64,000 nt of DNA from an uncultured Clostridia bacterium. GTDB taxonomy: Bacteria > Bacillota > Clostridia > Christensenellales > UBA3700. The stretch lies in the NCBI GenBank assembly GCA_948471525.1, contig CAOKSY010000001.1, positions 243,465 through 307,464 on the forward strand. Reading direction: 5' to 3'. Below the pieces are notes generated by a model, which ran no database searches, was not told the origin of the DNA, and worked only from the letters and a program-made list of their open reading frames with translations. This document shows, piece by piece, positions 3,702 through 45,235 of the stretch (position 1 is the first letter of the stretch; every line of letters starts with the position of its first letter). A program made the translations under genes and the position numbers.

Positions 3702-4625
3702 TTAAAAATATCCCAGCGTTACTTTCATCAAGAATCCGAAATAACTTTCTTTCGTATATGAACGAAGCAATTTGTTATTCTTCATTATTCTATGTTTCCC
3801 GCCGAGCGTATTTATATCCGCGCAAACTTTTATCAGAGGGAAATTTTTTGCCTGTTCGGGAAACTTTTCCAAAATTTCTTTCGCCAATGCGCTCCTTCCG
3901 TTGCGGAACTTCTTCTTGAAAACTTTTTTGGTTTTTTCCTTTATTTTTTTTGCAAGGCCGTCCTCGTATGCTCCGACGACGTTATTTTCGTGTTGACGGT
4001 ACTTCATAAACGATCTTTCGTCATAGATGATTCCGCCGTTGATCGACGCCGTCATCGCCAGCCACACGTCGTGAATCCTGTTGCGCAAAAGTTCCTCGGA
4101 CGGGCGGCTTTTTTTATCTGTGATCGCTTCATACAGGCTGCGCTTAAAAACCATTGTGCATCCCGCGAGCGTATTCTTCTCCAAAATCGCAATAGGGTCG
4201 AGATGTATTTGACTGTCTCTCCCATATCTCAATCCCAGAGAATTGCCGTATTTATCCACACACTCCTGATTTGAAGCATATAAAACTTTGTCGCTCTGCT
4301 CAAGCATCGCCACGGCTGCGGCAAGCTTATCTTCTTCCCATATATCATCCTGATCCGCAAACGAATAGTAATCGTGATCGCCTTCGACAGAATATAAAAG
4401 GTTCATAAAGCTGTTGCCAACGCCGACGTTTCCTTCGATAAACAACTTTACGTTGTCGTTGTCTTCCGCATAAGCGGACAGTATCTCCAGCGTGGAATCC
4501 TTTGAGCCGTCGTCTCTGATAAAAAGTTCCACATCCACTCCGGTTTGGTTGAGAATGCTGTCAATTTGTTCTTTGATAAATTTTTCGCCGTTGTACGCGC
4601 TCAACATAACCGCTACTTTACTCAT
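3702..4625 (-). CDS. Glycosyltransferase family 2
   Basis: 307 aa. GT-A signature VAVMLSAYNGEKFIKEQIDSILNQT, DDGSKD, ADQDD. Confidence 0.85.
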   Translation of the reverse strand: MSKVAVMLSAYNGEKFIKEQIDSILNQTGVDVELFIRDDGSKDSTLEILSAYAEDNDNVKLFIEGNVGVGNSFMNLLYSVEGDHDYYSFADQDDIWEEDKLAAAVAMLEQSDKVLYASNQECVDKYGNSLGLRYGRDSQIHLDPIAILEKNTLAGCTMVFKRSLYEAITDKKSRPSEELLRNRIHDVWLAMTASINGGIIYDERSFMKYRQHENNVVGAYEDGLAKKIKEKTKKVFKKKFRNGRSALAKEILEKFPEQAKNFPLIKVCADINTLGGKHRIMKNNKLLRSYTKESYFGFLMKVTLGYF

Positions 4626-6309: not shown

Positions 6310-7230
6310 TCAATATACCTCCGTCAGCCATTCTTTATATTTGGGGAACTGTCCTCTGACGATCTGCAAATAAAGTTTGTGTATCGTATCGGTGACTGAA
6401 TTCTCTATCGTCGGCAATTCATACTTGTCCACTGACAGTATAGGCGTGATCTCCATTGCCGAACCGCACAGGAACGCTTCGTCGCAGGTATACAGCTCAG
6501 TACGGTCGATGCTTCTTTCCTCAACTCGGATATTGAGATCGTCTCTCGCTATCTTTATTACGGTATCTCTCGTAATGCTTTCCAATACGCTGTCTGTCAA
6601 AAGCGGCGTGTAAAGCACCCCGTCTCTGACCATAAACAAACAAGATCCGGGACCTTCGGATACGGTGCCGTTTTCATTTATAAATATAGCGGTATCATAG
6701 CCGTTTCTCAAAGCCTCGAGCTGGGCCATTCTGCTGTTTATATAATTTGCTCCGCACTTTATTCTGGGCGAAAGACTGTTATCCGATATGCGACGCCAAG
6801 AACTTATACTGCATCTCAAACCTTTTTTGTTGTACTCCGCGTTTGTTTTTCTCTTAGGAACAGGCGAGATAAACATATTCACCGGACTGCTCGAACTCCA
6901 AGAGCCGAATCCGTCGATAAACAGCGTCTGTCTGACAGCGATATCCTCGCGGTATTTATTTGCAAGCACGGTATCCAAAAAAGCTTTTTTCAATTCTTCA
7001 AAAGTGAATTTGTCTTCCATGCACATAAGTTTTTGCGATCTCTTCAATCGCTTTATATGATCGTCCAAACGAAAAGCATACAACTGATTTTCGCTTTCGT
7101 TGTAATAACAGCGCACTCCTTCAAAGACGTTAAGTCCAAACTGCGCGGTAGGCGCAAGTACGTTTATCTTTGCGTCGTTTACGTCCACTATTTTTCCGTC
7201 AAACCATATAAATCTGCTTTCGGTTTTCAC
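6310..7230 (-). CDS. Class IV aminotransferase (branched-chain/D-amino-acid aminotransferase fold)
   Basis: 306 aa. FGLNVFEGVRCY, RIKCGANYINS (PLP lysine region), SEGPGSCLFMV. Confidence 0.8.
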   Translation of the reverse strand: MKTESRFIWFDGKIVDVNDAKINVLAPTAQFGLNVFEGVRCYYNESENQLYAFRLDDHIKRLKRSQKLMCMEDKFTFEELKKAFLDTVLANKYREDIAVRQTLFIDGFGSWSSSSPVNMFISPVPKRKTNAEYNKKGLRCSISSWRRISDNSLSPRIKCGANYINSRMAQLEALRNGYDTAIFINENGTVSEGPGSCLFMVRDGVLYTPLLTDSVLESITRDTVIKIARDDLNIRVEERSIDRTELYTCDEAFLCGSAMEITPILSVDKYELPTIENSVTDTIHKLYLQIVRGQFPKYKEWLTEVY

Positions 7231-30735: not shown

Positions 30736-30891
30736 ATATTTATTTTACATTATACGGATATTTTTATCAAGCGATATAAAAAATTTGAGAGATTGTACTT
30801 TTATATAATATATAATTACAAAGTGCTTTTATCGCCAAAATTAAGCGGTAAATCCATTGAAATTTCATTAATTTTATATTATAATATACGT

Positions 30892-32238
30892 ATGGAAGAA
30901 TGTAAGAAATTGTGGAATATTTTGTTGTCGGAAATATCCAATAGGATTTCAACGGTAAACTACGATATGTGGTTCAGTTCGTTGGAACCTTTGACCGTAT
31001 CTTATAACAAACTTATTATTGTTGCAAAACTCAAATCGGTCAAAAACGTAATAAACAAAGAATTCAGAAATATAGTCTGCGACGAAATAAAAAAACTCAA
31101 TTCTTATATCGACGACTTTATTATCATCACTCCCGACGAGATTTCGGTATATGAAAATCAAATCAAAGAGGAAGTAAAATTGCCCGATCCGGTAGAAAAT
31201 ACCGCCTTGTTCGACAATAATTTTACTTTCGATAAATTCGTCGTCGGTCAAAGCAACCAGATAGTGTACGTTGCCGCAAAAGCCGTAGCAAATCAACCGG
31301 GCACTCTACACAATCCCCTCTTTATTTACGGAGGCGTAGGATTGGGAAAGACCCATATAATGCACGCTATAGGAAACGAGATACTCAAAACTAATAAAAA
31401 GTCAAAGATCCTTTACTGCACTACCGAGCAATTCGTAAACGACTTTATCGACAGTATAAGAAACAATAAAGACAACGAACAAAATAAGAGATTTAGAGAA
31501 AAATACAGAAACGTTGATATCCTAATATTAGACGATATACAGTTTCTTGCGGGAAAGACAGGTACTCAGGAAGCGCTTTTCCATACTTTCAACGATCTCT
31601 ATCAAAGAAAAAAACAGATCATACTTTCTTCGGACAGGCATCCTAAAGAACTTACCTTTTTGGAAGAAAGACTTCAATCGAGATTTGCAAGCGGTCTGAC
31701 GGTAGATATATCCGCTCCCGACCTAGAGACGAGAATAGCTATACTTCAAAAGAAAGCGTTTTATAAAAACGTAAATCTGCCGATAGAAGTAGTATATTTT
31801 ATTGCGGAAAAATTCGACAGTAATATAAGAGAACTCGAAGGAGCGCTTCAAAAGGTAATATTCTACTGTCAGCTTCTGGGCAAAGAACCTGATAATATAG
31901 ATATCATAAAAGAAGCTTTGAAGGACGATATAGACGTGACTACGCATATACTCTCCCTCGACACTATAGTGGAAGCGACCTGTTCTTATTACAACATAAA
32001 AAAAGAAGAAGTCATAGGAAAGAAAAAACTTAAACCTATAGTGACGGCTAGACAGATAGCAATATATCTTATAAACGATATGCTCGGAGTTCCGCTGGCT
32101 ACTATAGGAAGTTATTTCGGCGGAAGAGATCATACTACTATCATCTACGCTAGAGATAAGATTGAAGAATTGATCAAGACAGACAATCTGACTGCCAATC
32201 AGATAAAAGATATAAAAAACATGATACAAAAGAGATAA
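30892..32238 (+). CDS. dnaA: Chromosomal replication initiator DnaA
   Basis: Start at ATG 30892 (448 aa). GGVGLGKTH, ILILDDIQF, C-terminal DNA-binding region RQIAIYLINDML...GGRDHTTIIYA. Confidence 0.95.
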   Translation: MEECKKLWNILLSEISNRISTVNYDMWFSSLEPLTVSYNKLIIVAKLKSVKNVINKEFRNIVCDEIKKLNSYIDDFIIITPDEISVYENQIKEEVKLPDPVENTALFDNNFTFDKFVVGQSNQIVYVAAKAVANQPGTLHNPLFIYGGVGLGKTHIMHAIGNEILKTNKKSKILYCTTEQFVNDFIDSIRNNKDNEQNKRFREKYRNVDILILDDIQFLAGKTGTQEALFHTFNDLYQRKKQIILSSDRHPKELTFLEERLQSRFASGLTVDISAPDLETRIAILQKKAFYKNVNLPIEVVYFIAEKFDSNIRELEGALQKVIFYCQLLGKEPDNIDIIKEALKDDIDVTTHILSLDTIVEATCSYYNIKKEEVIGKKKLKPIVTARQIAIYLINDMLGVPLATIGSYFGGRDHTTIIYARDKIEELIKTDNLTANQIKDIKNMIQKR

Positions 32239-32313
32239 TACAATATTTTTAAGTCCAATGATTATATAAAAATAAAAACCGTCGGACATAAAATTACACT
32301 GTATATTTCTCTT

Positions 32314-32423
32314 TGTGGAAAGTGTGGATAACTAAATAATCTTATCAACATATTTTGGTATATAAATGTTGATGTTTTTTTAGAATATGGGTCGATTAAA
32401 GACACTTATCAACACTATCAACA
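32314..32423. promoter_or_regulatory. DnaA-box cluster in the dnaA-dnaN spacer (oriC-like)
   Basis: Perfect TGTGGATAA at 32323-32331. TTATCAACA (1 mismatch) at 32342 and 32406. Weaker boxes at 32314 and 32415. Confidence 0.65.
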
Positions 32424-32437
32424 CAGTTATTATGGTG

Positions 32438-32478
32438 ATTATTATCTAATCAATATAAAATAAATAATATATTATAAG
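32438..32478. promoter_or_regulatory. A+T-rich tract, candidate DNA-unwinding element
   Basis: attattatctaatcaatataaaataaataatatattataag lies directly after the box cluster, as in the Bacillus dnaA-dnaN origin half. Confidence 0.45.
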
Positions 32479-32497
32479 CATCAAGAGGTGAACAAGT

Positions 32498-33604
32498 ATG
32501 AAATTTGTATGTAACGGAACCGATCTGTCGGACGCTTTGTCAAAAGTAATGAAGGCATTGCCGTCCAAGAAAAGTATGCCTATTTTGGAAGGAATAAAGT
32601 TTAGCGCTTTCGGAGATACACTTACTATAATGGCTACCGATATAGATTTTGTGGTTATTATGAAAATCAAAGCGGATATTATAATGGAAGGAGAAGTATT
32701 AGTCCCCGGAAGAACTATATGCGAATATATAAGAAAAATAAGCAAGGAAAACTATATAGAGTTTGATTCTCAAGTAGAAAACGATAAACTCTATATATCT
32801 CACTGCGACAGCTTTATTTATCTTGCTACGATGAATATCAGCGAATACCCCGCTATAGAAGAACTTGAATACGATATGGTAATGAATATCAAACAGAAAG
32901 ATTTCAAAGATCTCGTAAACAAAACGATATTCGCTACTTCTACCGAAGATATAAGACAGCAGCTCAGAGGTTGTCTCTTCTCCGTCAATAAAAATAAAGT
33001 AAGAACGGTAGGTCTCGACGGCTATAGACTTGCTATTTGCAATAAAGAATTGAAAGAAGAATATCCTGTAAAAGATATTATAGTTCCTGCAAAGAGCTTG
33101 AGCGAAATTGCTAAACTTTTTGAAAACGAAGACGACGAACTCAAGGTAAGCATAAACGATAAAAAGATGATGGTAGAGTTTGACAACAGCAAGATCATTA
33201 CGTCTCTTATTGCAGGTCAGTATATTAGATATGAATCTACTATACCTACCAACTTCGAGACTGAAGTGACTGTAGACAGAGCTAGCCTCGAATACAGTAT
33301 GGATAAGGTAGACGTAATTGCAAAGCAGGATAAAAACAACTATATAAAAATGGACATAAAAGAAGGAAAAATGACCATCTACTGCAATACGAGCTACAGC
33401 AATATAAAGGAAGTTATAAATACTTTTACGAAGGGTAAAGACGTTACGGTAAGTCTCAATGCAAAATATCTCACCGACTGTATCAAAAACAGCCACGACG
33501 AATATCTTTCAATAAAGATATCCAACAGCAATAATCCTATAGTTATTACTCCGATAGAAAGCGAAGAATATCTCTATCTCATACTTCCTATAAGAACGAG
33601 ATAA
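32498..33604 (+). CDS. dnaN: DNA polymerase III beta sliding clamp
   Basis: 368 aa, canonical length and N-terminus MKFVCNGTDLSDALSKV, immediately downstream of dnaA. Confidence 0.95.
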   Translation: MKFVCNGTDLSDALSKVMKALPSKKSMPILEGIKFSAFGDTLTIMATDIDFVVIMKIKADIIMEGEVLVPGRTICEYIRKISKENYIEFDSQVENDKLYISHCDSFIYLATMNISEYPAIEELEYDMVMNIKQKDFKDLVNKTIFATSTEDIRQQLRGCLFSVNKNKVRTVGLDGYRLAICNKELKEEYPVKDIIVPAKSLSEIAKLFENEDDELKVSINDKKMMVEFDNSKIITSLIAGQYIRYESTIPTNFETEVTVDRASLEYSMDKVDVIAKQDKNNYIKMDIKEGKMTIYCNTSYSNIKEVINTFTKGKDVTVSLNAKYLTDCIKNSHDEYLSIKISNSNNPIVITPIESEEYLYLILPIRTR

Positions 33605-33672: not shown

Positions 33673-34536
33673 TTAAAGTTTATTGATAAGATCGAATATT
33701 CTGTCGAGATCAGCCATTGAATAATAGTCGATATATATTCTGCCCTTGTTGTTATTGCCTACGGCGTTTACTTTTGTGCCGAACTTTTTCTGCATAACGT
33801 TGGCAAGATCTTTTAATTCAACGGAAATTTCTTGAACTTTTTGCTGTTTTTTGTTGGGATTGAGATAATTTCTCACCATAAGTTCCAACTGTCTTACGCT
33901 GAGTTGTTTGTCGCATGCGGCGATAGCATAAGTATTCTGAACTATATAGTCCTTTATAGATGAAAGACATCTTGCGTGACCAGCGGATAATCTTCCGTTG
34001 ATGACCATATCTATTACTACAGGATTGAGATTGAGAAGTCTAAGAGAATTAGCAATAACAGGTCTTGATTTACCAAGTCTGTCGGCAAGCTGCTCCTGAG
34101 TAAAATCGTATTCGTCTATAAGCGCTTTATAAGCCTGCGCTTCTTCTATAGGATTGAGATCCTGTCTCTGAAGATTTTCTATGAGAGATATCTCTTTTAT
34201 TTGTTTTCTTGTAAGTTCTTTTACTATAGCGGGAATAGTTGTGTTTCCTGCTATTTTATTTGCTCTGAATCTTCTTTCGCCCGCTACTATCTCATAATTG
34301 CCGTCTTCTGTCGGACTTACTATGATAGGTTGGATAACTCCGTAATTTTTAATTGATACGGAAAGTTCTTCCAAAAGGTTCTGATCGAATTTTTTTCTCG
34401 GTTGATTGGGATTTGTAACAATTTTGTTTATTGACAAAATTTCTACGCCTGCGTTTAGATTTCCGTTTTTGTCAAATGACGTGATATTGGAATCTATATT
34501 AAGCATTCTTTCGATAGTCGAATTTTCTTTTGTCAT
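33673..34536 (-). CDS. parB: ParB/Spo0J-family partition protein (Noc-type paralog not excluded)
   Basis: 287 aa. ParB box AGERRFRA and HTH TQEQLADRLGKSRPVIANSLRLL. Confidence 0.88.
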   Translation of the reverse strand: MTKENSTIERMLNIDSNITSFDKNGNLNAGVEILSINKIVTNPNQPRKKFDQNLLEELSVSIKNYGVIQPIIVSPTEDGNYEIVAGERRFRANKIAGNTTIPAIVKELTRKQIKEISLIENLQRQDLNPIEEAQAYKALIDEYDFTQEQLADRLGKSRPVIANSLRLLNLNPVVIDMVINGRLSAGHARCLSSIKDYIVQNTYAIAACDKQLSVRQLELMVRNYLNPNKKQQKVQEISVELKDLANVMQKKFGTKVNAVGNNNKGRIYIDYYSMADLDRIFDLINKL

Positions 34537-34663
34537 AGGTATGCCTCCACTCTAAGCAGTTATGATAACATCAACCGTAAGCCGTATTAGACGGGCTGAT
34601 AAAACTGAACAGCGTTATCTTCTATATTATATCAAATAAAATCTCTATATGCAAGTGAAAATA

Positions 34664-35371
34664 TTATCCGACAATAGGTTGAAGTCGAGGTTTATTTCCG
34701 CCTCTCGGGTATTTGTCGGAACAATTTTCTATCTTTTTTATACAAATAAGATATCTTTTTTCGTCATTTGACAAAATATATTCTCTTACGTAGTCTATCT
34801 TTGAATTTAAGAGGCAAATAATTTTTTTTGATATATCCAATTCTTCTTTATAATTTATTCCTTTATAAGCAATCAATACCCCGTTTTTTCTCAATAAAGG
34901 AAGAGTATATTCCGCCAAAGTAGGCATTTGAGCGACGGCTCGCGCTATGCAGCAATCGAATTTTTGAAAGTTGGATCTAGAAAAATCCTCTATTCTCGAA
35001 TGATAAGCAGTGACGTTTTTGATACAAAGATTTTTGATTATTTCTTCTATAAAAGTTATCTTTTTATTTACGCTGTCAATGAGAGTAAAATTTATATCGG
35101 GATTAACTATTGCCAGCGGTATACTTGGAAATCCGGCTCCGCATCCTATGTCGCATATAGATGAATAATTTTGTATATCGACGTTTGCCGACAGACTGTC
35201 TATAAAATGTTTTATCTGTATATCTTCTATATCGGTAATAGAAGTAAGATTGAATTTATTGTTCCATTCCAAGAGAATATCGCAATAAATTTCAAATTTA
35301 TTTATTAATTCGGGTATGTTTTCGTATTTATTGTCTATTAGATATTTTTCCAGTAAATTTAGTCTTGTCAT
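34664..35371 (-). CDS. rsmG: 16S rRNA (guanine527-N7)-methyltransferase RsmG
   Basis: 235 aa. SAM motif DIGCGAGFPSIPLAI. 1-nt gap after mnmG. Confidence 0.9.
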   Translation of the reverse strand: MTRLNLLEKYLIDNKYENIPELINKFEIYCDILLEWNNKFNLTSITDIEDIQIKHFIDSLSANVDIQNYSSICDIGCGAGFPSIPLAIVNPDINFTLIDSVNKKITFIEEIIKNLCIKNVTAYHSRIEDFSRSNFQKFDCCIARAVAQMPTLAEYTLPLLRKNGVLIAYKGINYKEELDISKKIICLLNSKIDYVREYILSNDEKRYLICIKKIENCSDKYPRGGNKPRLQPIVG

Positions 35372-35372
35372 A

Positions 35373-37244
35373 TCAGTTATTTTTGTTTTTAGAAAGATAT
35401 ACGAGAAGTACCGTTATATCCGCAGGAGATACTCCGCTTATTCTCGACGCCTGTCCGAGATTAGAAGGTCTGATCTTATCGAGTTTTTGTCTCGCTTCTA
35501 TTCTAAGACCTTTTATAAGAGAATAATCTAAATATTGAGGTAAAGACTTGGATTCCAATTTATCTACGTCGGCAATGATATTTTTTTGCTTTGACAGATA
35601 ACCTTCGTATTTTATTTCTACCGCTACTTCTTCAAAACATCTTCTGTCGAGATTTGAAAGCTCATCAAAATTATCCATCAAGAGATCGTAAGTGATTGCA
35701 GAACGCTTTAACATATCTCTATAAGAGAGACCGTTGTGAGGGATAGGTTCGCCTAATTTTTCAAAGAAATCTTTAAAATCTTTAGGAGATATAATCTTTT
35801 CAAGAGTCTTTTTTATCAAAGACGATTTGTTTTCTTTTTCGCAGAATTTATTCCATCTCGTATCGTCTACAAGTCCTATCTCTCTTCCCGACGGCGTGAG
35901 TCTTCTGTCGGCGTTTTCCTGTCTTAAAATAAGTCTGTGCTCCGCTCTTGCGGTCATCATTCTATAAGGTTCGTTGGTGCCTTTCGTCACCAGATCGTCG
36001 ATCAGAACTCCTATATAAGAGCTGTCTCTTTTGAGAATAAAAGGTTGTTTGTTTTGTATATACAAAGAAGCGTTGATTCCTGCGACTAGACCTTGCGCCG
36101 CCGCTTCTTCGTATCCGCTGCTGCCGTTGAGCTGTCCTGCCAAAAACAAACCCTCAATATTTTTTACCATAAGATAAGGAGTAAGCGCGAGAGAATCTAT
36201 ACAGTCGTATTCTATAGCGTAAGCGAATCTGAGTATTTTGACTTTTTCGAGACCTATAACGGATCTGTACATCTCAAGCTGAACGTCAAACGGCAGAGAC
36301 GAACTCATACCCTGTACGTACATCTCGTTGGTAAGACTGCTTTCAGGTTCGATAAATATTTGATGACGTTCTTTGTCAGCAAATCTCATTACTTTATCTT
36401 CGATAGAAGGACAGTATCTCGGACCAATGCTGTGTATAGATCCGTTATATAGAGGCGAACGGTCAATATTTGACGTAATTATATCCTTTGTCTTTTGAGT
36501 AGTGTAAGTGAGATAACATACGTCTTTGTTGGGCACGAATCCTTCCGTCATGAAAGAAAACGGATATATATCGTCGTCGCCTTTCTGTACTTGCATTACG
36601 TCGAAATTTATAGAATTTTTGTCTACTCTGGCAGGCGTGCCCGTCTTAAATCTTCTTGTTGGAATTCCGAGAGATATTAGACTGTCGGTGAGCTTTGTAG
36701 CGCGGGAAAAACCGTTGGGACCCGTATGCGTAACGTTGTCGCCGATAATTATATTTGCATTGAGATAAACGCCGGTGCATACCACTATAGCGTCGCAGAA
36801 AAATTCCTGTCCGAGAGTAGTTTTTATACCTATTACTTTATCGTTTTGAGTGAGTATATCGGAGACTTCGCCTTGCAATATATCGAGGTTTTCTTGTGTC
36901 TCCATAACGTTCTTCATATAATGATGATACATGGTCTTATCGGCTTGACCTCTCAACGACTGCACTGCCGCGCCTTTACCCATATTAAGCATACGTATCT
37001 GAAGAAGATTGTTGTCGGCGGAAATACCCATCTGTCCGCCCAAAGCGTCGATTTCTCTCACTAAATGACCTTTTGCCGTTCCGCCTATAGCGGGATTACA
37101 AGCCATAAAAGCTATTGCGTCCAAAGAAAGAGTTACCGCCAAAGTCTTGTGTCCAAGACGCGCCAAAGCAAGGCTTGCTTCAACTCCCGCGTGTCCGCAA
37201 CCTATCACTATCGCGTCGTAATTTTTCTGGTAACTGTCGAGCAT
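35373..37244 (-). CDS. mnmG: tRNA uridine 5-carboxymethylaminomethyl modification enzyme MnmG
   Basis: 623 aa. FAD motif VIGCGHAGVEA, full-length GidA architecture. Confidence 0.95.
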   Translation of the reverse strand: MLDSYQKNYDAIVIGCGHAGVEASLALARLGHKTLAVTLSLDAIAFMACNPAIGGTAKGHLVREIDALGGQMGISADNNLLQIRMLNMGKGAAVQSLRGQADKTMYHHYMKNVMETQENLDILQGEVSDILTQNDKVIGIKTTLGQEFFCDAIVVCTGVYLNANIIIGDNVTHTGPNGFSRATKLTDSLISLGIPTRRFKTGTPARVDKNSINFDVMQVQKGDDDIYPFSFMTEGFVPNKDVCYLTYTTQKTKDIITSNIDRSPLYNGSIHSIGPRYCPSIEDKVMRFADKERHQIFIEPESSLTNEMYVQGMSSSLPFDVQLEMYRSVIGLEKVKILRFAYAIEYDCIDSLALTPYLMVKNIEGLFLAGQLNGSSGYEEAAAQGLVAGINASLYIQNKQPFILKRDSSYIGVLIDDLVTKGTNEPYRMMTARAEHRLILRQENADRRLTPSGREIGLVDDTRWNKFCEKENKSSLIKKTLEKIISPKDFKDFFEKLGEPIPHNGLSYRDMLKRSAITYDLLMDNFDELSNLDRRCFEEVAVEIKYEGYLSKQKNIIADVDKLESKSLPQYLDYSLIKGLRIEARQKLDKIRPSNLGQASRISGVSPADITVLLVYLSKNKNN

Positions 37245-37361
37245 ATTTTATTACCTCTTTCTTGGAAAAAACAATCGAAAAGATCGCTGATTTCTGTGTT
37301 TTATTATATCATAACAACCGTTGTATTTGCAAATATTACGCGCTTGTGATATAATATTATT

Positions 37362-38690
37362 ATGAATACCGTAGCAACTATTTCTACCCCGATAGGTCGC
37401 GGAGCGATAGCTATAGTGAGAATGAGCGGAGACAACGCGTTAAGTATTGCGGCAAGTTTGTTTGAATGTAAAAAACTTGCCTCTTTTTGCGACGCTGTTC
37501 CCAACTATATGTATTATGGAAGCATTACTGCGGGTAAGGTCAAGGATAACGTGCTTGCCGTCTATTTTAAAGCGCCTCACTCATATACGGGAGAAGATGT
37601 GGTAGAGTTTCAGTGTCACGGCGGAATTAGACTTGTCGACGAAATTCTTAAGGGCTGTATCGAAAACGGAGCGGCTGTCGCCGATAAGGGAGAATTCACC
37701 AAGAGAGCTTTTCTCAACGGCAAGATAGCGCTGAGCGACGCTGAAGGAATAATCGATATGATAAACGGCGAGAGCATAGCCTCGCTCAATGCCGGATACA
37801 GACTTTCCAAAGGATATATAGCGCAAGAGATAAGCGCTATTCAAGAGAAATTACTCGATTGTATTTCAGAACTCGAGGCAAGCCTCGACTATCCCGAAGA
37901 AATGGAAGAAGAGGCAAAACAGAATTCTCAAAAGACTGTAAAAGAAGAGATACGCGCTTTAGAAAAATTATATTCGTCTTCCCGATCGGGCGGATATATC
38001 CGTCAGGGAATAAGCGTGGCGATAGTAGGACAAGCCAACGTCGGCAAGTCTTCTCTGCTCAACGCGTTTTTAGGAAGAGACAGAGCTATAGTCACAGATA
38101 TTGCTGGCACTACCAGAGACAGTCTCGAAGAGTATACGGAAGTCGACGGAATAATGCTAAAACTGATAGATACCGCGGGAATAAGAGATACGGACGACGT
38201 CGTGGAATCTATCGGCGTAGAAAGAAGTATAGAAGCCGCCAAAGGCAGCGATATAGTGCTGTTTGTCACAGAGGCCGGAAGAGAACTCAACGACTACGAA
38301 AGATCGCTTATATCGCAATTTGACAAAGACAGTAAATTGATGCTTGTGATAAACAAGTGCGATAAGGCGGACGACAGTAGAGACGGCGCGCATATAAGTG
38401 CCAAAAACGGCAAAGGAGTGACGCAGTTAAAAAAATCTATAGTCGACGCATTTATTGATAAAAATATCGACGCAAACGGCGATATAATCACAAACGTAAG
38501 ACACGCACAAGCGATAAAAATGTCTCTCGACGCTTTGAAAAACGCTTTTATGAATATAGACGATATGCCCACCGAATGCACGTTGATCGATTTGAGAGAA
38601 GCATATTTTGCGCTCGGAGAGATCACCGGAAATACCGCAAGCGAAGATATTATCGATACTATATTTTCAAAATTCTGTCTCGGCAAATAA
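37362..38690 (+). CDS. mnmE: tRNA modification GTPase MnmE
   Basis: 442 aa. GQANVGKSSLLNA, DTAGIR, NKCD, C-terminal CLGK. Confidence 0.95.
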   Translation: MNTVATISTPIGRGAIAIVRMSGDNALSIAASLFECKKLASFCDAVPNYMYYGSITAGKVKDNVLAVYFKAPHSYTGEDVVEFQCHGGIRLVDEILKGCIENGAAVADKGEFTKRAFLNGKIALSDAEGIIDMINGESIASLNAGYRLSKGYIAQEISAIQEKLLDCISELEASLDYPEEMEEEAKQNSQKTVKEEIRALEKLYSSSRSGGYIRQGISVAIVGQANVGKSSLLNAFLGRDRAIVTDIAGTTRDSLEEYTEVDGIMLKLIDTAGIRDTDDVVESIGVERSIEAAKGSDIVLFVTEAGRELNDYERSLISQFDKDSKLMLVINKCDKADDSRDGAHISAKNGKGVTQLKKSIVDAFIDKNIDANGDIITNVRHAQAIKMSLDALKNAFMNIDDMPTECTLIDLREAYFALGEITGNTASEDIIDTIFSKFCLGK

Positions 38691-38749
38691 TAATTTATAT
38701 AATATCAATTTAAAATTATTTGTCTTTTTTCAATTAATGAGGAAATTAT

Positions 38750-38893
38750 ATGAAAAATTATGAACTGGTACCCTATTGCGACAGCGATCACGACAGTTAT
38801 ATAAAAAGTCAGTTGGAGGCTTTTACAAAATATATAAGTGAGTTTTTCGGCAAGTGCGACGTATCGATAATGGAAGGTCATTTGAAGATATGA
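38750..38893 (+). pseudogene. 47-aa ORF with RBS, possibly a remnant of a longer gene
   Basis: GAGGAAATTATATG. The product MKNYELVPYCDSDHDSYIKSQLEAFTKYISEFFGKCDVSIMEGHLKI resembles the start of an acetyltransferase-type protein and stops early. Not in the ORF track. Confidence 0.2.
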
Positions 38894-38935
38894 AAACCTT
38901 ATCTATTCAAAATTACTGTCCGAGACGAATTATTA

Positions 38936-38973
38936 GTATAAAAATGCCGCTCCTTGGTTTCAAACGGAGCGGC
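38936..38973 (-). terminator. Terminator of the rpmH...jag transcription unit
   Basis: GCCGCTCC...GGAGCGGC stem, followed on the minus strand by ATTTTTATA. Confidence 0.55.
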
Positions 38974-39058
38974 GTAATATTTGAGTATTAAGAACTTTAG
39001 AAAACAAACTGAGTTTTTTACTTTAAAAGTATTTTAGTATGAATTCTTACTCTGCAGA

Positions 39059-39844
39059 TTAAAAGAACTTTTTCATATCGCCGCCGTAAGATTTCATTCT
39101 GGTTACGCCGGTCTTATTAAAGTTGCGGGGTTCTTTTTCCTGAGCCTGTTGATTTGACGGAGCCGATTGCTTTGGTCTTGCAGGACGGTCTCCGCCGCGT
39201 CTTTCTCTGCCTTCATTATTGCGGTCTCTTTTATCGAAAGAAGGCTTTTTTGGAGCGATAACGACGTATCTGTTGGGTTCTTCTCCGTGGCTTTCCGTTG
39301 TGACGAATCTGTCGTCGTGAAGAGCGGAGTGGATAATTCTTCTTTCAAAAGGATTCATAGGCTCCAGAGATTCCGCCTTGCGGTTTTTAGCTACTCTGAA
39401 TGCGATCTTTTTAGCGAGTTTTGAAAGCGTGGCAATACGTTTTGCGCGATAGTTTTCTCCGTCGATTACAAGTCTCTTGCCCATAGGGTTGTCCTTATTT
39501 ACGACCAAGAGAGAAAGGTACTGCAAAGAGTCGAGTACGTCTCCTCTGTATCCGATAAGCACGCCCGTATCGTCTCCCGAAAGAGATATGTAGAATGCGT
39601 CTTCCTTTTCCTCTACCGTTGCCTCGCACTTGATGCCCATTCTCTGTATTATACCGTTGATAAAGTCGTTTACAAGAGTTGCGCCGCTTACCTTTTGCGT
39701 TACTTTTACAGTGACTTTTTTGCGGATAAGCCCCGTCTCTTTGATCTTTTCCGCTTCTACCTGACTTTCGTCAAGTCCCAGTTCTTCCAAAGCCTGCTTA
39801 AGCGCTTCGGCATAACTGTTTGCAGTAATTTCTATACTTTTCAT
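39059..39844 (-). CDS. jag: Jag/KhpB RNA-binding protein (Jag_N, KH, R3H)
   Basis: 261 aa. R3H region ERRIIHSAL, basic Arg/Gly-rich tail, located downstream of yidC. Confidence 0.85.
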   Translation of the reverse strand: MKSIEITANSYAEALKQALEELGLDESQVEAEKIKETGLIRKKVTVKVTQKVSGATLVNDFINGIIQRMGIKCEATVEEKEDAFYISLSGDDTGVLIGYRGDVLDSLQYLSLLVVNKDNPMGKRLVIDGENYRAKRIATLSKLAKKIAFRVAKNRKAESLEPMNPFERRIIHSALHDDRFVTTESHGEEPNRYVVIAPKKPSFDKRDRNNEGRERRGGDRPARPKQSAPSNQQAQEKEPRNFNKTGVTRMKSYGGDMKKFF

Positions 39845-39896
39845 ATATATCTCCTCAAAGACGCCATCGCGTCCTTTTGTGTAATAATCGATCTTG

Positions 39897-41054
39897 TTAT
39901 TTTTTCTTTTTATCGTTGTTCTTTGCGCCGAAATAAGTCTTCTGTGAAGAAGAGGATACTGTGACGGCTGAGTTGGTTTTTTTCTCGTCGGATTTCTTTG
40001 CGATTATATTGAATATAAGAGTAACTATTGTCATAAACAGATTGCTCATAAAGTAATATATCGCAAATGCCGCGCTGTATACGATCGCGAAAAATCCGAG
40101 TACCAACGGCATAAGATACGTCATTATTTTATTCATCATCTTCTGTTGCTTTTGCTGAGCTTCGTCGCCTGTAGTCATAGGTTGCATAGGCTGAAGTTTC
40201 TGCTGAAGCATAGTAGAGAAAAAGCTTGTCAGTATCGAAAGTATCGGCAAGATGAAATATCCGTTCCAGTTGCCCATATCGAAGAATTTCTTCTTGTTGT
40301 ACGCATTGATGATAGGAGACATCAATTCGTTATAGCACGTGCCGGGCAATTCGGGTATCGTAGCCGCAATTCCGCCGAAGCCCGTAGCCTCGAAGTTCTT
40401 CTGACTGGGAATTACGTTGGCAAACGTGTCTGACATAAATACGTTCTTTACCCACAGCCAGCTTTCGGGCTTGTATCCGTCAACAAGAGCCGCGTTGAGC
40501 TGCTCGACTAAGCCTGCGTTTTCAATCAAATTATACGACGGTATGGAGACAAGTTTTCCCGCTTCGACCACGGTCTGTCCCGCCGCGGCGTTTATAGCGT
40601 CGGCGTTTTCTATAAAGAAATTGACGTACAGCGCGTATTGATTGCTTACTATCTCTTCGTTTTTGGAAATGATATATTCTCTGAAACCTTGGAAGATAAG
40701 AGCGAATATCACCAACGTAAAGATCATCGGCAAACAAGATGCAAACATATTGATATGCGCGGATTTTTGCAGTTCGAACTGCTTTTGACGCAGTATATCC
40801 GGTCTGTTGGCGTACTGTCTTTGCAGTTTTTCCATCTGCGGACGCAACGCGTCCATCTTGGCCTTCTGTTTGCGCATGCTGATCTTTTGCCATATGTCGA
40901 ATGGCGTGAGTAAAAGCCTCAGCAAAAGAGTGAAGACCACTACCGTCCAACCGAAATTGCCGATGCCTTTGTTCATCCAATCCAACAACTTTATAATAGG
41001 TTGCCAGACGGAGCTTACGGCAGCCAGCATATTACTTAAATTCATAATAGCCAT
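39897..41054 (-). CDS. yidC: Membrane protein insertase YidC
   Basis: 385 aa, multi-TM, canonical position after yidD/rnpA, Lys-rich C-terminus. Confidence 0.9.
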
Positions 41055-41281
41055 TTTGCGTTTCCTTTAAAATCGTCTTTGACGGGATCGTATCCGCCTT
41101 TTGAAAAGGGATTGCATCTCAATATTCTCGCTATACCCTGCGCCGTGCCGCGAAGCCGTCCGTATTTGGCGATCGCCTGCGACATATACGCGGAACAACT
41201 CGGCGTATATTTGCACCTGTGCGGCAAAACGGGGTTTATAAACCGCTTATAATATCGAATTAATAAATTTCCGCTTTTCAT
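41042..41281 (-). CDS. yidD: Membrane protein insertion efficiency factor YidD
   Basis: Start chosen at ATG 41281 (79 aa). [19 protein letters not shown] motif. Confidence 0.8.
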
Positions 41282-41417
41282 CTTAATCTTTTTATCTTTT
41301 GACAGTTTAAAATAAGCCGTCAAAGATAATTTCTTGGTCCGATTTAGTCAAGAAAACTTTCGGACCGGGTATTTCTGTAGGCGCAAACGACAAGTTTACG
41401 CGGCTTTTTTATAAAAA

Positions 41418-41819
41418 TCAAGTATTCTGCGCGATCGACTCTCTCTTTTTCAACGAAAGTTTTTCGACCGTTTCTTCGTCAATATTATTGACCAGAAGTT
41501 TGGATTTTTTCAAAGCCTGTACGATGGAATCCGCAATTTGAGAAAAAGTCGAGTCGGCGCATTCCGCTCTCGCTATGATTATATAGTTGCATTTATCCTC
41601 GACAAACGGTATCAGTGCGCGAAATGCTTCTCTCAGACGTCTGCGAACCTTGTTTCTGACGACGGCTTTGCCTACTTTTTTGCTTACGATAAATCCTACC
41701 TTAAGCGAATATTTCGACGGCGCATAAACAAGTACAAGCCGCTTATTTGCAGTGGATACTCCTCTTCTGTGCAGATAATTGAATACTCTGCTGCTTTTGA
41801 GCCTGTACTTTTTTTGCAT
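41418..41819 (-). CDS. rnpA: Ribonuclease P protein component
   Basis: 133 aa, basic, KKVGKAVVRNKVRRRLRE. Confidence 0.88.
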   Translation of the reverse strand: MQKKYRLKSSRVFNYLHRRGVSTANKRLVLVYAPSKYSLKVGFIVSKKVGKAVVRNKVRRRLREAFRALIPFVEDKCNYIIIARAECADSTFSQIADSIVQALKKSKLLVNNIDEETVEKLSLKKRESIAQNT

Positions 41820-41826
41820 TGCAATA

Positions 41827-41961
41827 TTATGCGGTCAGTTGCTTTCTGCCCTTGTTGCGACGTCTTTTGATTACGTTTCTGCCGTTTTTGGTACGCATTC
41901 TCTCACGGAAGCCGTGAACCTTGGATCTCTGTCTTTTTTTAGGTTGATAAGTCTGTTTCAT
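41827..41961 (-). CDS. rpmH: 50S ribosomal protein L34
   Basis: Below the ORF-track cutoff. I translated [44 protein letters not shown] (44 aa). Confidence 0.9.
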
Positions 41962-42005
41962 TTTTGTATCCTCTCTTTTATATATAAATAAAATTATGCT
42001 ATATC

Positions 42006-42034
42006 AGTATATATAAATTGGAGACGGGTGTCAA
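42006..42034 (-). promoter_or_regulatory. Sigma-A-type promoter of rpmH operon (TTGACA-17-TATACT)
   Basis: On the minus strand, -35 at 42034-42029 and -10 at 42011-42006. Confidence 0.55.
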
Positions 42035-42144
42035 GTAATTTGGCGCAGTTGAATACAAATGCGTTTGGGAGCATTGACAATAAAGATGTAAAAAGCAAAA
42101 ATAATTCTTAAAATAAATGATAACGCAGTTGATTTACAGGACTT

Positions 42145-42172
42145 TTGACACAGCCCTCGGTAATACTATAAT
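42145..42172 (+). promoter_or_regulatory. Near-consensus promoter-like element (TTGACA-16-TATAAT) pointing antisense into the flavoprotein gene
   Basis: TTGACA at 42145-42150 and TATAAT at 42167-42172. No plus-strand gene follows. Confidence 0.4.
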
Positions 42173-42181
42173 GCAATAATA

Positions 42182-43213
42182 TCAAATACTCCTCATATTT
42201 TTAAACCTGTCGGACATAAACGATAACAAATGCCACTGTCGTTTCATATATTTCTCAGTTTGGGAAGCGTTTATAATATACTGTGAAATTACTTTGTTCG
42301 GGCGGTCGAAGTTCTCGGCAATGGCTTTTGCGGCGGCATATCCGCTCTCTATTGCCGACGAGATTCCTTCGCCCATAGGATTGAGAAAACCTGCGGCTTC
42401 CCCTGCGCGCAAAATCCTTTCGCATCCGTAGTCGACCGAGAAGTCGGGGCGAATACGCGGCATTATCCACTTCTCTTCCTTTACTTTTTCAAAAATATTT
42501 AAATTGTAGGACCTCTCCAAGTGAACTTTAAAAGCGCTGTAAAATCCATTTAATTTGCCGATATCGTTATTTTTGACAGCCGTTCCTATCACGAGCATAC
42601 CGTCTTTGACGTTGAGCCAAGCGTCATATTGCGAAAATTCAGGCTGAAGAAAAGCATAGAAATAATGCGGGTCGAGATCTATCGTTCCGCGAAAAAAACA
42701 TTGATATGTGACGATAAAATCTTTTTTTGACGGAGAATCGGTTAATATTATCGAATTTGCCGCTCCGCCGCAGTTGATGAAATAAGCGGCTTTTTCTCGA
42801 TATGATTTGTCAAACTCAACGTCGACGCGATCGCTGAAAGAAGCGCAGCTAATTATAGAACGGTTGTCGATCAACTTTGCTCCCGAGTCGATCGCCATAT
42901 CCGTAAGCCAGCTATCAAAAGAACTCCGCCATACGTTAAGCCCTTTTTGTTCAAAACGGTACTCATTTCCCTCGTCATTGACAAATATCATTCCTTTATT
43001 GTCTGAAGGCGCGCATTTTACGCGATCAGGTATATCCGAGCCGAAATAATCACTGATAAGTCGTATAGTTTTTTCGATTATCATACCCGAGCAAGACTTA
43101 TATCGAGGTAATTTATGTCTTTCGGTAATCAATACCGAAAAACCTTTATCTGCTAATACTTTAGCGCAAGTTGCGCCGGCTGGACCGGCGCCGGCAATAA
43201 TAACGTCGCACAT
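42182..43213 (-). CDS. FAD-dependent oxidoreductase (geranylgeranyl-reductase-like flavoprotein)
   Basis: Start at ATG 43213 (AAGGA RBS), 343 aa. DVIIAGAGPAGATCA dinucleotide-binding motif. Confidence 0.8.
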   Translation of the reverse strand: MCDVIIAGAGPAGATCAKVLADKGFSVLITERHKLPRYKSCSGMIIEKTIRLISDYFGSDIPDRVKCAPSDNKGMIFVNDEGNEYRFEQKGLNVWRSSFDSWLTDMAIDSGAKLIDNRSIISCASFSDRVDVEFDKSYREKAAYFINCGGAANSIILTDSPSKKDFIVTYQCFFRGTIDLDPHYFYAFLQPEFSQYDAWLNVKDGMLVIGTAVKNNDIGKLNGFYSAFKVHLERSYNLNIFEKVKEEKWIMPRIRPDFSVDYGCERILRAGEAAGFLNPMGEGISSAIESGYAAAKAIAENFDRPNKVISQYIINASQTEKYMKRQWHLLSFMSDRFKNMRSI

Positions 43214-43496
43214 TTTATTCCTTTTGCTGATTGATATCGCTATTATAATACCATATCGCCGGCAATATATCAAGTAATAGGTATTCAAGATCAATATAAC
43301 CAATAATTAAACACAGTGCAAAAATATATGCAGATAAAATAACTTTAAGTAAATAGTTTGATGGCGCAATATAGCCTATAATAAATAACGGAAGAAAAAT
43401 AATTAATTTTTAATATTGATTATGGGTCAATAGGCAATATGATGCTCCAATATTTATCCTAGAGCCGCTGTATTTCGTATCTAAATTTGCGAGGCA

Positions 43497-43521
43497 AAGA
43501 ATGCTTGGTAAAGCATTTTTT
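43497..43521 (+). terminator. Terminator-like hairpin plus T-run
   Basis: AATGCTT-ggta-AAGCATT followed by TTTT. Confidence 0.4.
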
Positions 43522-43627
43522 ACATACTCAGTAAATATGTGTATGTCACAATAGGCGTTACCACATCAATGTAACAGATATGGATACATAATGGGAATAA
43601 TAGCTTAAAAGGACAAGCTACTGTATT

Positions 43628-43643
43628 TGTTCCACGTGAAACG
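43628..43643. promoter_or_regulatory. parS site (ParB/Spo0J binding), 15/16 match
   Basis: TGTTCCACGTGAAACG versus the Bacillus consensus TGTTNCACGTGAAACA. Confidence 0.8.
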
Positions 43644-44147
43644 GGACAATAATTCCCAACAGTATTTGATAACTTGGATATTGTCTTGAGATGAGAATTA
43701 ATAAAACTGTCTATCCTTTCGTAAGTTTAAATGGTGCTTGTCTGCAGAGAGAAACTTAAGATTAATTGAAAACGTCTTAGATAATAGATCATAAATAGTA
43801 TGTTAGTAGTTGTGGCGACTAAGTCAACATATCAAAAGTAGTGAATTGTTGATGCAGTAATGATGCTTATATTATTCTACACGACACGTGCTTTGCCCTA
43901 TCTCAAGCAATAAAGAGATCGGCGGTAAAATAAATTTATGAAAATCTACAACGCGGCTTACTCGTATTATTTGGTTACGTAAGAGCTTAATGATTCCATA
44001 GTTTAAAGCAATGAAATATCCAGATCATCTTTCTTATCTGAAAATTGCGCTAGCACTGTCTCAAAAGTTCGGGAAAATCTATTTTTCATTTCAATTGTAA
44101 TTTTAAAATAACAAAGTTATTTTAATTTTGCCAACTTGCAGATAATG

Positions 44148-44173
44148 CAGTATGCGAATTCAATCGCATACTG
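44148..44173. other. Perfect 10-bp hairpin/inverted repeat
   Basis: CAGTATGCGA-attcaa-TCGCATACTG. Confidence 0.6.
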
Positions 44174-44335
44174 TTCTCTTCCATTCTACTCTTTTGAAGA
44201 TGACGTAATGTGACGTTGTTAGTGGCATAATAAGTATTTGAGTTGATATTAGATCTACAGGCGCTTTATATCTATTGAATCGCACGTAGCGTCATAGGAT
44301 AACTTTTATATGGTAAACTTTAACATGCGCGCAAA

Positions 44336-44344
44336 TGTGGATAA
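44336..44344 (-). promoter_or_regulatory. Perfect DnaA box
   Basis: TGTGGATAA, the complement of TTATCCACA, followed by C. Confidence 0.7.
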
Positions 44345-44392
44345 CTAGCTAGCTTAGAAATATCCAACGGACATAACAGTATGTATATATGA

Positions 44393-44408
44393 AGTTTCAC
44401 GTGCAACA
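44393..44408. promoter_or_regulatory. parS-like site, 14/16 match
   Basis: AGTTTCACGTGCAACA. Confidence 0.6.
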
Positions 44409-44452
44409 ATTTACAAAAACAAGACGGTTGCAACTATTAATGAGTGTGGAAT

Positions 44453-44461
44453 TGTGGATAA
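44453..44461 (-). promoter_or_regulatory. Perfect DnaA box
   Basis: TGTGGATAA followed by C. A degenerate TGTGGAATT lies directly upstream (44445). Confidence 0.7.
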
Positions 44462-44774
44462 CGCACAAGCAGATAACGATACCCACATATTTAATCCTAA
44501 GCAGCAGTTGCTATAAAGTAATAAAGATTAGCAACGTTCCCACCAGTATTGCTATCTACAGTGACAATCAAGTTTCACAGCGATCGGGATAGGTTTTATA
44601 TTTGCAATAACATAGTATGAAGCCTTTGCCCCTTTTTTACTGCTCTGACATTTGTCTGTTCATCTATGACTGATGGATATTGCGTATATCTATTGGATCT
44701 ATTCCATCGCTAAATCATACTGTGCTCTGTCGTACTCCCAATGGCATAACGGAACCGTATTGTGTCAGGTCAAG

Positions 44775-44802
44775 TTATCTTGCTGAGATTTATCTTGAGA
44801 TC
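44775..44802 (+). repeat. Adjacent direct repeat TTATCTTG(CT)GAGAT
   Basis: TTATCTTGCTGAGAT is immediately followed by TTATCTTGAGATC. Confidence 0.6.
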
Positions 44803-44880
44803 TGCTGAATACACTGTAATATTAGCGATTTAAGGTAGAAATTGAGTTGTTTCATGACAGGTTGTCTTGCTTGTCCAAAT

Positions 44881-44896
44881 TGTTTCCTGTGAAACA
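44881..44896. promoter_or_regulatory. parS-like site, 14/16 match
   Basis: TGTTTCCTGTGAAACA, with mismatches only at the two central-left positions. Confidence 0.6.
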
Positions 44897-45024
44897 TTAT
44901 TGAGACATCTATATTCTAAAAACGACGATTCTAGCACTTTATTTTCTCAAATTGGGTGATTTTGCTAGACAATTACTGATATATTTCTGTATAAAATTGG
45001 CTGTCTTGCTACTTTTTCAGGCTT

Positions 45025-45047
45025 TGTTTCACGATTTTTGTGAAACA
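45025..45047. promoter_or_regulatory. Split parS: both half-sites perfect, separated by 7 bp
   Basis: TGTTTCAC-gattttt-GTGAAACA. The arms extend to 9 bp (TTGTTTCAC/GTGAAACAA). Confidence 0.5.
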
Positions 45048-45102
45048 ATTTGGCGATTAAAAATACGACTATATTTCGTTGGTTTTAGTATTATATCTAC
45101 TG

Positions 45103-45128
45103 AAAATGGCATGTTTTTGCCATTTTTT
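45103..45128. terminator. Terminator-like hairpin (bidirectional form)
   Basis: AAAATGGCA-tgtttt-TGCCATTTT plus extra Ts. Confidence 0.5.
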
Positions 45129-45175
45129 ACTGAACAGGTTCAATAATTTCAAATTTTCAAAGATAAAATCCGATT

Positions 45176-45235
45176 TTGAATAAATTAACTGATAAAGTTT
45201 ATAATTAATACTGTAGATATTTTAGTAGATCTACT
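45176..45235 (+). promoter_or_regulatory. Promoter (TTGAAT-18-TATAAT) and 12-bp palindrome AGTAGATCTACT upstream of the 48-aa ORF
   Basis: -35 at 45176-45181, -10 at 45200-45205, perfect palindrome at 45224-45235 between the -10 and the RBS. Confidence 0.45.

Follow-up and report, generated by a model that had tools for sequence, protein, structure and literature searches.

Within the analysed stretch of DNA (hereafter the window; 64 kb in length), Pfam scans and a listing of short ORFs revealed gyrA, gyrB, a GNAT gene and recF on the minus strand, dnaA and dnaN on the plus strand, parB, rsmG and mnmG again on the minus strand, mnmE on the plus strand, and jag, yidC, yidD, rnpA, rpmH and a flavoprotein gene on the minus strand, followed by an ORF-free region, small genes and a tRNA-Leu gene. 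The product of dnaA (30892-32238, plus strand) matches Bac_DnaA with an E-value of 2.9e-65, dnaN (32498-33604, plus strand) shows Pfam matches to all three beta-clamp domains, and parB (33673-34536, minus strand), likewise identified by a Pfam match, is the sole ParB gene of the assembly; a ParA-like gene is present elsewhere on the same contig. The rpmH gene (41827-41961, minus strand) was recognized in the short-ORF listing. Except for mnmE, all genes from parB to the flavoprotein gene (33673-43303) are encoded on the minus strand, head-on to a rightward fork. In this block, mnmE (37362-38690) is inverted with respect to its neighbours in all 16 loci of the genus compared here and not in a genome of another family (G035, locus L026), and its flip renders it co-directional with the inferred fork. 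The flavoprotein gene (42182-43303), which encodes an FAD-dependent oxidoreductase and lies between rpmH and the ORF-free region, was found only in the source genome and in one other species (L011), i.e. in two of the 16 loci, and is probably a recent insertion.

The comparison within the genus comprised the dnaA-to-rpmH neighbourhood of 16 loci (the source genome and 15 other species), and loci of several other families of the order were also retrieved; all records found are uncultured, metagenome-derived assemblies labelled Christensenella or Christensenellaceae at NCBI. That dnaA and dnaN are located apart from rpmH, as pointed out in a preliminary description of this DNA, proved to be real and a derived state: in each of the 22 further genomes of the genus included in the search, dnaA (plus strand) and rnpA (minus strand) are either approximately 10 to 12 kb apart or on different contigs, whereas the canonical adjacent position of rnpA/rpmH and dnaA has been kept in several other families of the order. 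Misassembly was considered as an explanation and rejected, since the same gene order is present in independent assemblies of at least 15 species. The strand bias noted in the same description could also be reproduced. Left of 43.2 kb we counted 27.9 kb of coding sequence on the minus and 9.5 kb on the plus strand (previously about 28 and 11 kb), right of 45.2 kb the plus strand prevails with 10.6 kb versus 4.8 kb (previously about 12 and 5 kb), and between 33.6 and 43.3 kb there are 7.2 kb on the minus versus 1.3 kb on the plus strand (previously about 7 and 1.3 kb).

The ORF-free region (43304-45230) adjoins rpmH and the flavoprotein gene; in its 1.9 kb no ORF of 80 or more amino acids, no Rfam family and no tRNA gene was detected. 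When the whole assembly (23 contigs, 1.72 Mb, 96% complete) was searched for the parS consensus TGTTNCACGTGAAACA with up to two mismatches, only three sites were returned, all of them located here: parS#1 at 43628-43643 (TGTTCCACGTGAAACG, 15 of 16 positions matching), parS#2 at 44393-44408 (TGTTGCACGTGAAACT on the minus strand, also 15 of 16) and a parS#3-like site at 44881-44896 (TGTTTCCTGTGAAACA), whose right half-site does not vary within the genus. Because the only parS sites of the assembly cluster in this region and there is a single ParB gene, we regard it as the centromere of the chromosome; several copies of the palindrome close to the origin, together with a ParB gene, are what characterizes a parS/ParB centromere. 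An ORF-free gap of 2 to 4 kb beside rpmH is present in all members of the genus, and its layout is shared genus-wide, with parS#1, parS#2 and a degenerate parS#3 followed 144-145 bp further on by a split parS (in the window at 45025-45047, TGTTTCAC-N7-GTGAAACA). The half-sites of this split parS, whose conservation exceeds that of the true parS sites, are invariant in 12 of the 16 loci (L011-L023 and L027 have it at the same place); one further locus of the genus and the sister genus (G024) show it with one mismatch. Downstream of the split parS follow a hairpin with a T-run (45105-45130), in whose stem the changes between species are compensatory, and a conserved palindrome, TGAAC-NN-GTTCA (45131-45142). 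Together these could represent the end of a small transcript and an operator for some regulator.

The preliminary description had drawn attention to two perfect DnaA boxes in the same orientation, 117 bp apart, within this region. Both were recovered by our scan: TTATCCACA occurs without mismatch on the minus strand at 44336-44344 (reading TGTGGATAACT on the plus strand) and at 44453-44461, and the downstream copy is part of a tandem (44445-44461, minus strand) in which a degenerate repeat, TGTGGAAT, adjoins the perfect TGTGGATAA. The window contains only four perfect boxes, the other two being located at 4252 and at 32323 in the dnaA-dnaN spacer, and the 1.72-Mb assembly contains 33, compared with about 17 expected from its base composition. 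At the observed genome density approximately 0.04 perfect boxes are expected in a 1.9-kb stretch, so the presence of two in the ORF-free region is not due to chance. Two perfect boxes and one repeat with three mismatches within 126 bp are denser than expected by chance; nevertheless, the region is sparser in boxes than the 260-bp dnaA-dnaN spacer, which has three boxes with at most one mismatch, or the oriC1 of an outgroup genome with six perfect boxes, and in the whole 1.9 kb no further box with at most one mismatch was found. The two boxes bracket parS#2, the middle site of the cluster, and their first positions precede and follow the start of that site by 57 and 60 bp, respectively, so that DnaA boxes adjoin parS as they do in Caulobacter.

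The arrangement of box, parS#2 and box recurs in other species of the genus. In nine of the 16 loci a perfect TGTGGATAA, followed by CT, is located 54-57 bp before the start of parS#2, and in the same nine loci a box with zero to two mismatches, often in the tandem form TGTGGAAw-TGTGGATAA, is found 51-61 bp after it. The other seven loci contain no match better than three mismatches at either position, and control windows contained none better than two. The upstream 9-mer and its CT flank are perfect in all nine species although the surrounding sequence cannot be aligned, the spacing between upstream box and parS#2 is constant to within 3 bp, and both boxes are either retained (nine loci) or lost (seven loci) jointly. 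Fixed spacing, joint retention and loss, and unalignable surroundings are the signature of a selected unit. In a tree based on six proteins the box-bearing species fall into three separate parts of the genus, and the module looks ancestral in the genus and lost at least three times. As the tree implies at least three losses, the module must be dispensable. The boxes are missing from the sister genus (G024), and in a search of 301 genomes from 150 genera of the order the pattern box-N35-60-parS was confined to this genus, apart from a single unrelated genome. A genome of another family of the order (G295:C8:25700-25764) shows an independent TGTGGATAACT adjoining two parS sites with perfect core.

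In the preliminary description the functional origin of replication, or a second one, had been tentatively placed at these boxes, uncoupled from dnaA. Gene orientation alone would indeed favour an origin at 44 kb, which would leave a head-on block of 3 kb instead of 10 kb. However, both the skew minimum and the change-point of gene composition point to the spacer between dnaA and dnaN (32239-32497, plus strand), an outcome that the preliminary description had itself named as refuting its interpretation. The cumulative G-C curve of the 309-kb contig declines continuously until it reaches its minimum at C1:275119 (position 31,655 of the window, about 600 bp away from the spacer), then stays flat to about 45 kb and rises thereafter. 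As the flat stretch between 31 and 45 kb, which lacks a sharp V, needed interpretation, we trained a classifier for leading- and lagging-strand genes on six features (GC and AT skew at the three codon positions), using 1,109 genes of unambiguous replichore from the source genome alone, and then applied it to the relatives. Its cross-validated AUC was 0.98, with about 96% of the genes in each class assigned correctly. The maximum-likelihood position of the fork switch is 32,368, inside the dnaA-dnaN spacer, and a switch at 44,364 is worse by 11.7 log-likelihood units. Two simpler measures were abandoned. GC skew at four-fold-degenerate sites discriminated only weakly between the classes on a per-gene basis (0.011 versus -0.069, with a standard deviation of about 0.19) and was replaced by the six-feature classifier. 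GC3 skew alone was negative for genes on both strands between 31 and 40 kb and is therefore confounded in this block, probably by codon preference; here we used the multi-feature model together with the 16 species and outgroup controls. Read coverage would offer little resolution at this scale, as copy number is expected to change by approximately 1% over 12 kb (for a peak-to-trough ratio of 2 and a genome of 1.7 Mb), which is below coverage bin noise and GC bias.

The composition of the individual genes is consistent across the genus. Lagging-type composition was assigned to dnaA (plus strand) in all 16 loci and to the minus-strand genes jag in 15, parB in 14, and rsmG and yidC in 12 loci each; leading-type composition was assigned to the plus-strand genes dnaN (15 of 16) and mnmE (12 of 16). 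In relatives with canonical layout, jag, mnmG and mnmE score 0.94-1.0 for leading wherever they were found and parB scores 0.91-1.0; rsmG is lower in three of these genomes, and rnpA mostly reaches 0.96-1.0, one genome with high G+C content being the exception (all others are at or above 0.94). Since the orthologues are leading-type in the canonical layout, the lagging composition is not intrinsic to the genes from parB to yidC. Coding-strand GC skew shows the same difference: jag and parB have values of 0.24 and 0.13 in G025, a canonical-layout genome of similar G+C content, versus means of 0.03 and -0.01 in the genus. The dnaA gene scores low in most canonical-layout relatives as well, which is expected because unwinding takes place just downstream of it. 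The genes nearest to the ORF-free region, yidD, rnpA and the flavoprotein gene, received ambiguous or leading-like scores of 0.58-0.75; yidD and rnpA are short and basic. The switch from lagging to leading composition that marks an origin is thus not found at the 44 kb boxes, and the same applies to the 16 loci of the genus.

The dnaA-dnaN spacer itself has the architecture of an unwinding site. It contains a tandem of boxes, TGTGGAAAG and TGTGGATAA (32313-32331, minus strand), a TTATCAACA (32342-32350), a second tandem composed of TTATCAACA and CTATCAACA (32406-32423) and a trio-like TTA TTA .. TTA TTA (32427-32444), and from position 32438 a stretch with 95% A+T, the highest value for any 40-mer in the three intergenic regions that were compared. 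Across the genus the spacer hardly varies; its elements are, in order, tandem TGTGGAwA-TGTGGATAACT, TTATCAACA, TGTCGATAA, tandem TTATCAACA plus yTATCAACA, TTATTA..ATTATTATCTAAT and an A+T run with a maximum of 95% over 40 bp. It has a trio run of seven triplets, and its genus-invariant block of tandem boxes, trio-like repeats and AT-rich stretch aligns with the box-CTACTA unit ATATCCACA-AGTTCACAG-CCT-CTACTACGGTTACGACTA of the outgroup, and the unit of box and trio matches, with the same polarity, the experimentally supported trio 5'-CTACTACTATTACTACTA of Clostridioides difficile oriC2 (PMC7561715). The spacer also fits the rules formulated for basal unwinding systems (PMC8287927). A motif of the type GGACATAA/GACATAA is conserved both in the spacer, upstream of the tandem boxes (around 32284-32292), and between the upstream box and parS#2 (around 44369-44377), and may be a shared site for some factor.

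The boxes at 44 kb do not conform to the rules for DnaA-trios and unwinding elements, i.e. trios at most 16 bp from a box, then an AT-rich element. Three N-T-N triplets, the bare minimum, follow the box at 44453, the length of the trio run beside the boxes ranges from one to eight among the relatives with no block that could be aligned, and the genus alignment revealed neither a conserved trio nor a conserved AT-rich element next to them. The A/T tract that had been noted about 200 bp upstream of the boxes exists (44080-44129, 90% A+T), and the alignment shows that it is not kept in the relatives. As a discriminator between the candidates the (NAN)x3 trio rule turned out to be too permissive in AT-rich DNA (median runs of 6.5 versus 4), and the argument was therefore based on the conservation of blocks in the alignments. 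Conservation among close relatives, as shown by the spacer, is lacking for the 44 kb boxes, which are present in nine of 16 loci and in none of the sister genus. Taken together, replication most likely starts in the dnaA-dnaN spacer, 12 kb to the left of the boxes.

How the present layout may have arisen can be judged from the other families of the order, where rnpA/rpmH adjoins dnaA with two to six perfect boxes in between (six in G025). In canonical-layout loci where parS was found it is located at that end of the block which carries parB, and it adjoins this gene in two of three cases; 53 kb separate the parS region from dnaA in the sister genus (G024). To derive the present from the canonical layout, at least two inversions would be required, in which the parB-to-rpmH block and the dnaA-dnaN pair were each turned around. 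Inversion of dnaA-dnaN would have been neutral because it is symmetric about the unwinding site; inversion of the block would have placed 10 kb of conserved genes in head-on orientation to the fork. As the derived order is common to the whole genus and to G035 of another family, it is old enough for gene composition to have re-equilibrated; indeed, the genes of the head-on block have moved toward the lagging type. The flip of mnmE, restricted to the genus, would then be later than the inversion of the block, and is in keeping with this direction of the fork. The boxes at parS#2 may descend from a cluster on the rpmH side (oriC1) that was split from dnaA by this genus-wide rearrangement. Concerning the region upstream of dnaA, the preliminary description had stated that it contains no good DnaA box, and we found none with up to one mismatch in the recF-dnaA spacer (30736-30891).

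Perfect boxes also occur far from the origin in this genome. Three perfect and one near-perfect box are located upstream of purE (C10:26361-26446), three perfect boxes beside a regulator-like gene (C22:3902-3945) and two between efp and spoIIIAA close to the terminus (C2:170560-170618). These three clusters, two of them with three perfect boxes each, indicate that DnaA has many targets outside the origin in this organism, and a perfect box need not mark an origin here. In a relative with canonical layout (L057 of G033, positions 6617-6843), three perfect boxes are located between mnmE and jag, a position corresponding to that of the thdF-jag cluster of Bacillus subtilis.

We consider it probable that the origin is the dnaA-dnaN spacer and that the 44 kb boxes, by analogy with characterized systems, serve as an auxiliary site for DnaA close to the origin and within the centromere, conserved yet dispensable. 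According to this reading, unwinding would take place in the spacer, which keeps an architecture of the Firmicute oriC2 type, and the rightward fork would run head-on through the parB-to-rpmH block before reaching the 44 kb region. There, a lineage-specific composite of DnaA box, about 48 bp, parS#2, about 36-44 bp and a tandem DnaA box occupies the centre of the only parS cluster, the presumed ParB loading zone, beside rpmH. DnaA bound on either side of parS#2 might sequester the initiator near the origin and thereby damp initiation, in analogy to the DnaA-box clusters (DBCs) of B. subtilis, or its occupancy might be coupled to the loading or sliding of ParB at the central parS, in analogy to the Caulobacter centromere. 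A specific form of the second option would be a coupling device: DnaA bound on both flanks of the central parS, at a distance of about 50 bp, would control how ParB loads or slides, or conversely ParB would control the availability of DnaA. We regard this tentative proposal as rather unlikely. If it were true, a centromere 12 kb from a stripped-down origin lacking oriC1 would report or control the initiation potential, and the link known from the DnaA-bound centromere of Caulobacter would have been invented independently in a Firmicute.

A role of the boxes in initiation itself has to be weighed against the auxiliary site. The preliminary description had alternatively interpreted the 44 kb region as the box-rich half of a split origin, in which case the boxes would be a displaced oriC1-type cluster and DnaA would loop over 12 kb to the spacer and assist unwinding. 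The location directly upstream of rpmH is that of oriC1 in canonical relatives such as G025, no box is present upstream of dnaA in the genus, oriC2 of C. difficile requires oriC1 for unwinding in vitro, and the tandem TGTGGAAw-TGTGGATAACT as well as the GACATAA motif are found in both the spacer and the module. However, only two boxes with at most one mismatch in 1.9 kb hardly make a box-rich half, no conserved trio or AT-rich element accompanies them, and seven of 16 congeners and the sister genus do without them despite the same spacer architecture. Furthermore, the parS region of the sister genus is 53 kb away from dnaA, and the halves of known bipartite origins are separated by dnaA only, i.e. 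by about 1.4 kb. We consider the split origin improbable.

Slightly more doubtful is a transcriptional operator, with DnaA acting as transcription factor on an unannotated transcript or a neighbouring gene. Box clusters elsewhere in the genome are located upstream of operons (purE and spoIIIAA), and the conserved hairpin with T-run near 45105-45130 suggests transcription of the plus strand in this region. Yet the closest coding gene on either side is about 0.8-1 kb distant from the boxes, a distance that grows to about 2 kb where relatives lack the flavoprotein gene; in a promoter and terminator scan of the ORF-free region promoter-like sites were not enriched and none adjoined the boxes, the region has no Rfam match, and the fixed spacing is to parS and not to a promoter. 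It is very unlikely that the boxes are a decaying relic, i.e. functionless leftovers of an ancestral origin half on the rpmH side. The loss of the module in at least three lineages and its position beside rpmH, where the ancestral oriC1 would have been, could be explained in this way, but a 9-mer with CT flank that is perfect in nine of nine species amid unalignable sequence, a distance to parS held within 3 bp, and upstream and downstream boxes kept or lost together indicate purifying selection on a unit. That DnaA unwinds the region between 43.3 and 45.2 kb and forks diverge there, as a second or the real origin, is highly improbable: co-directionality of the genes between 33.6 and 43.3 kb, two perfect boxes and the 90% A+T tract about 200 bp away speak for it, but the skew minimum and change-point at the spacer (with 11.7 log units in disfavour of 44 kb), the lagging-type genes from parB to yidC in 12 to 15 of 16 species with leading-type orthologues in canonical genomes, the lack of a conserved trio or AT-rich block at the boxes and the absence of the boxes from seven of 16 congeners speak against it.

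A probable auxiliary DnaA site in the centromere and a probable origin in the dnaA-dnaN spacer would have consequences beyond this locus. For the prediction of origins, perfect boxes and tallies of gene orientation were misleading here, and it was the composition of individual genes and the conservation of motifs that restored the spacer as the origin. About 10 kb of conserved, largely essential genes, including rpmH, rnpA, yidC and mnmG, are oriented head-on to the fork beside the origin in this whole genus of gut Clostridia and in at least one other family; both this block and the lack of an oriC1-type cluster upstream of dnaA are unusual for Firmicutes. In the bipartite oriC described for B. 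subtilis and C. difficile, oriC1 is located between rpmH and dnaA and oriC2 between dnaA and dnaN (PMC7561715), and in C. difficile unwinding of oriC2 in vitro needs oriC1 in addition (PMC7561715). The spacer analysed here matches oriC2 in its tandem boxes, CTA/TTA trios and AT-rich DUE, and the 44 kb region is located upstream of rpmH like oriC1. In contrast to the bipartite Firmicute oriC, rpmH and dnaA are 10 kb apart with a conserved block between them that is head-on to the fork, no box cluster is present upstream of dnaA, and the rpmH side is dominated by parS instead of boxes.

The auxiliary site itself resembles two known systems. In B. subtilis, origin-proximal DBCs restrain or delay initiation in synergy with Spo0J (Okumura et al. 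2012, PMC3245932); they interact genetically with Spo0J/Soj and are individually dispensable (PMC3245932). Like the DBCs, the boxes described here form a short intergenic cluster of consensus boxes near but outside the unwinding origin. They differ in that they number two to three and bracket parS at a fixed spacing in the sole parS cluster, whereas DBCs have not been described as linked to parS. In Caulobacter crescentus, DnaA binds to boxes at parS and is required for movement of the centromere (Mera 2014, as reviewed in PMC6399470). The box-parS-box unit shares with this system the location of initiator sites within a ParB/parS centromere that lies a few kb away from the origin, and by analogy suggests that replication initiation is linked to segregation. 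The module is compact and well suited for asking whether the initiator and ParB interact on DNA outside the Alphaproteobacteria; Caulobacter belongs to the latter and the organism studied here to the Firmicutes, in which the arrangement arose independently.
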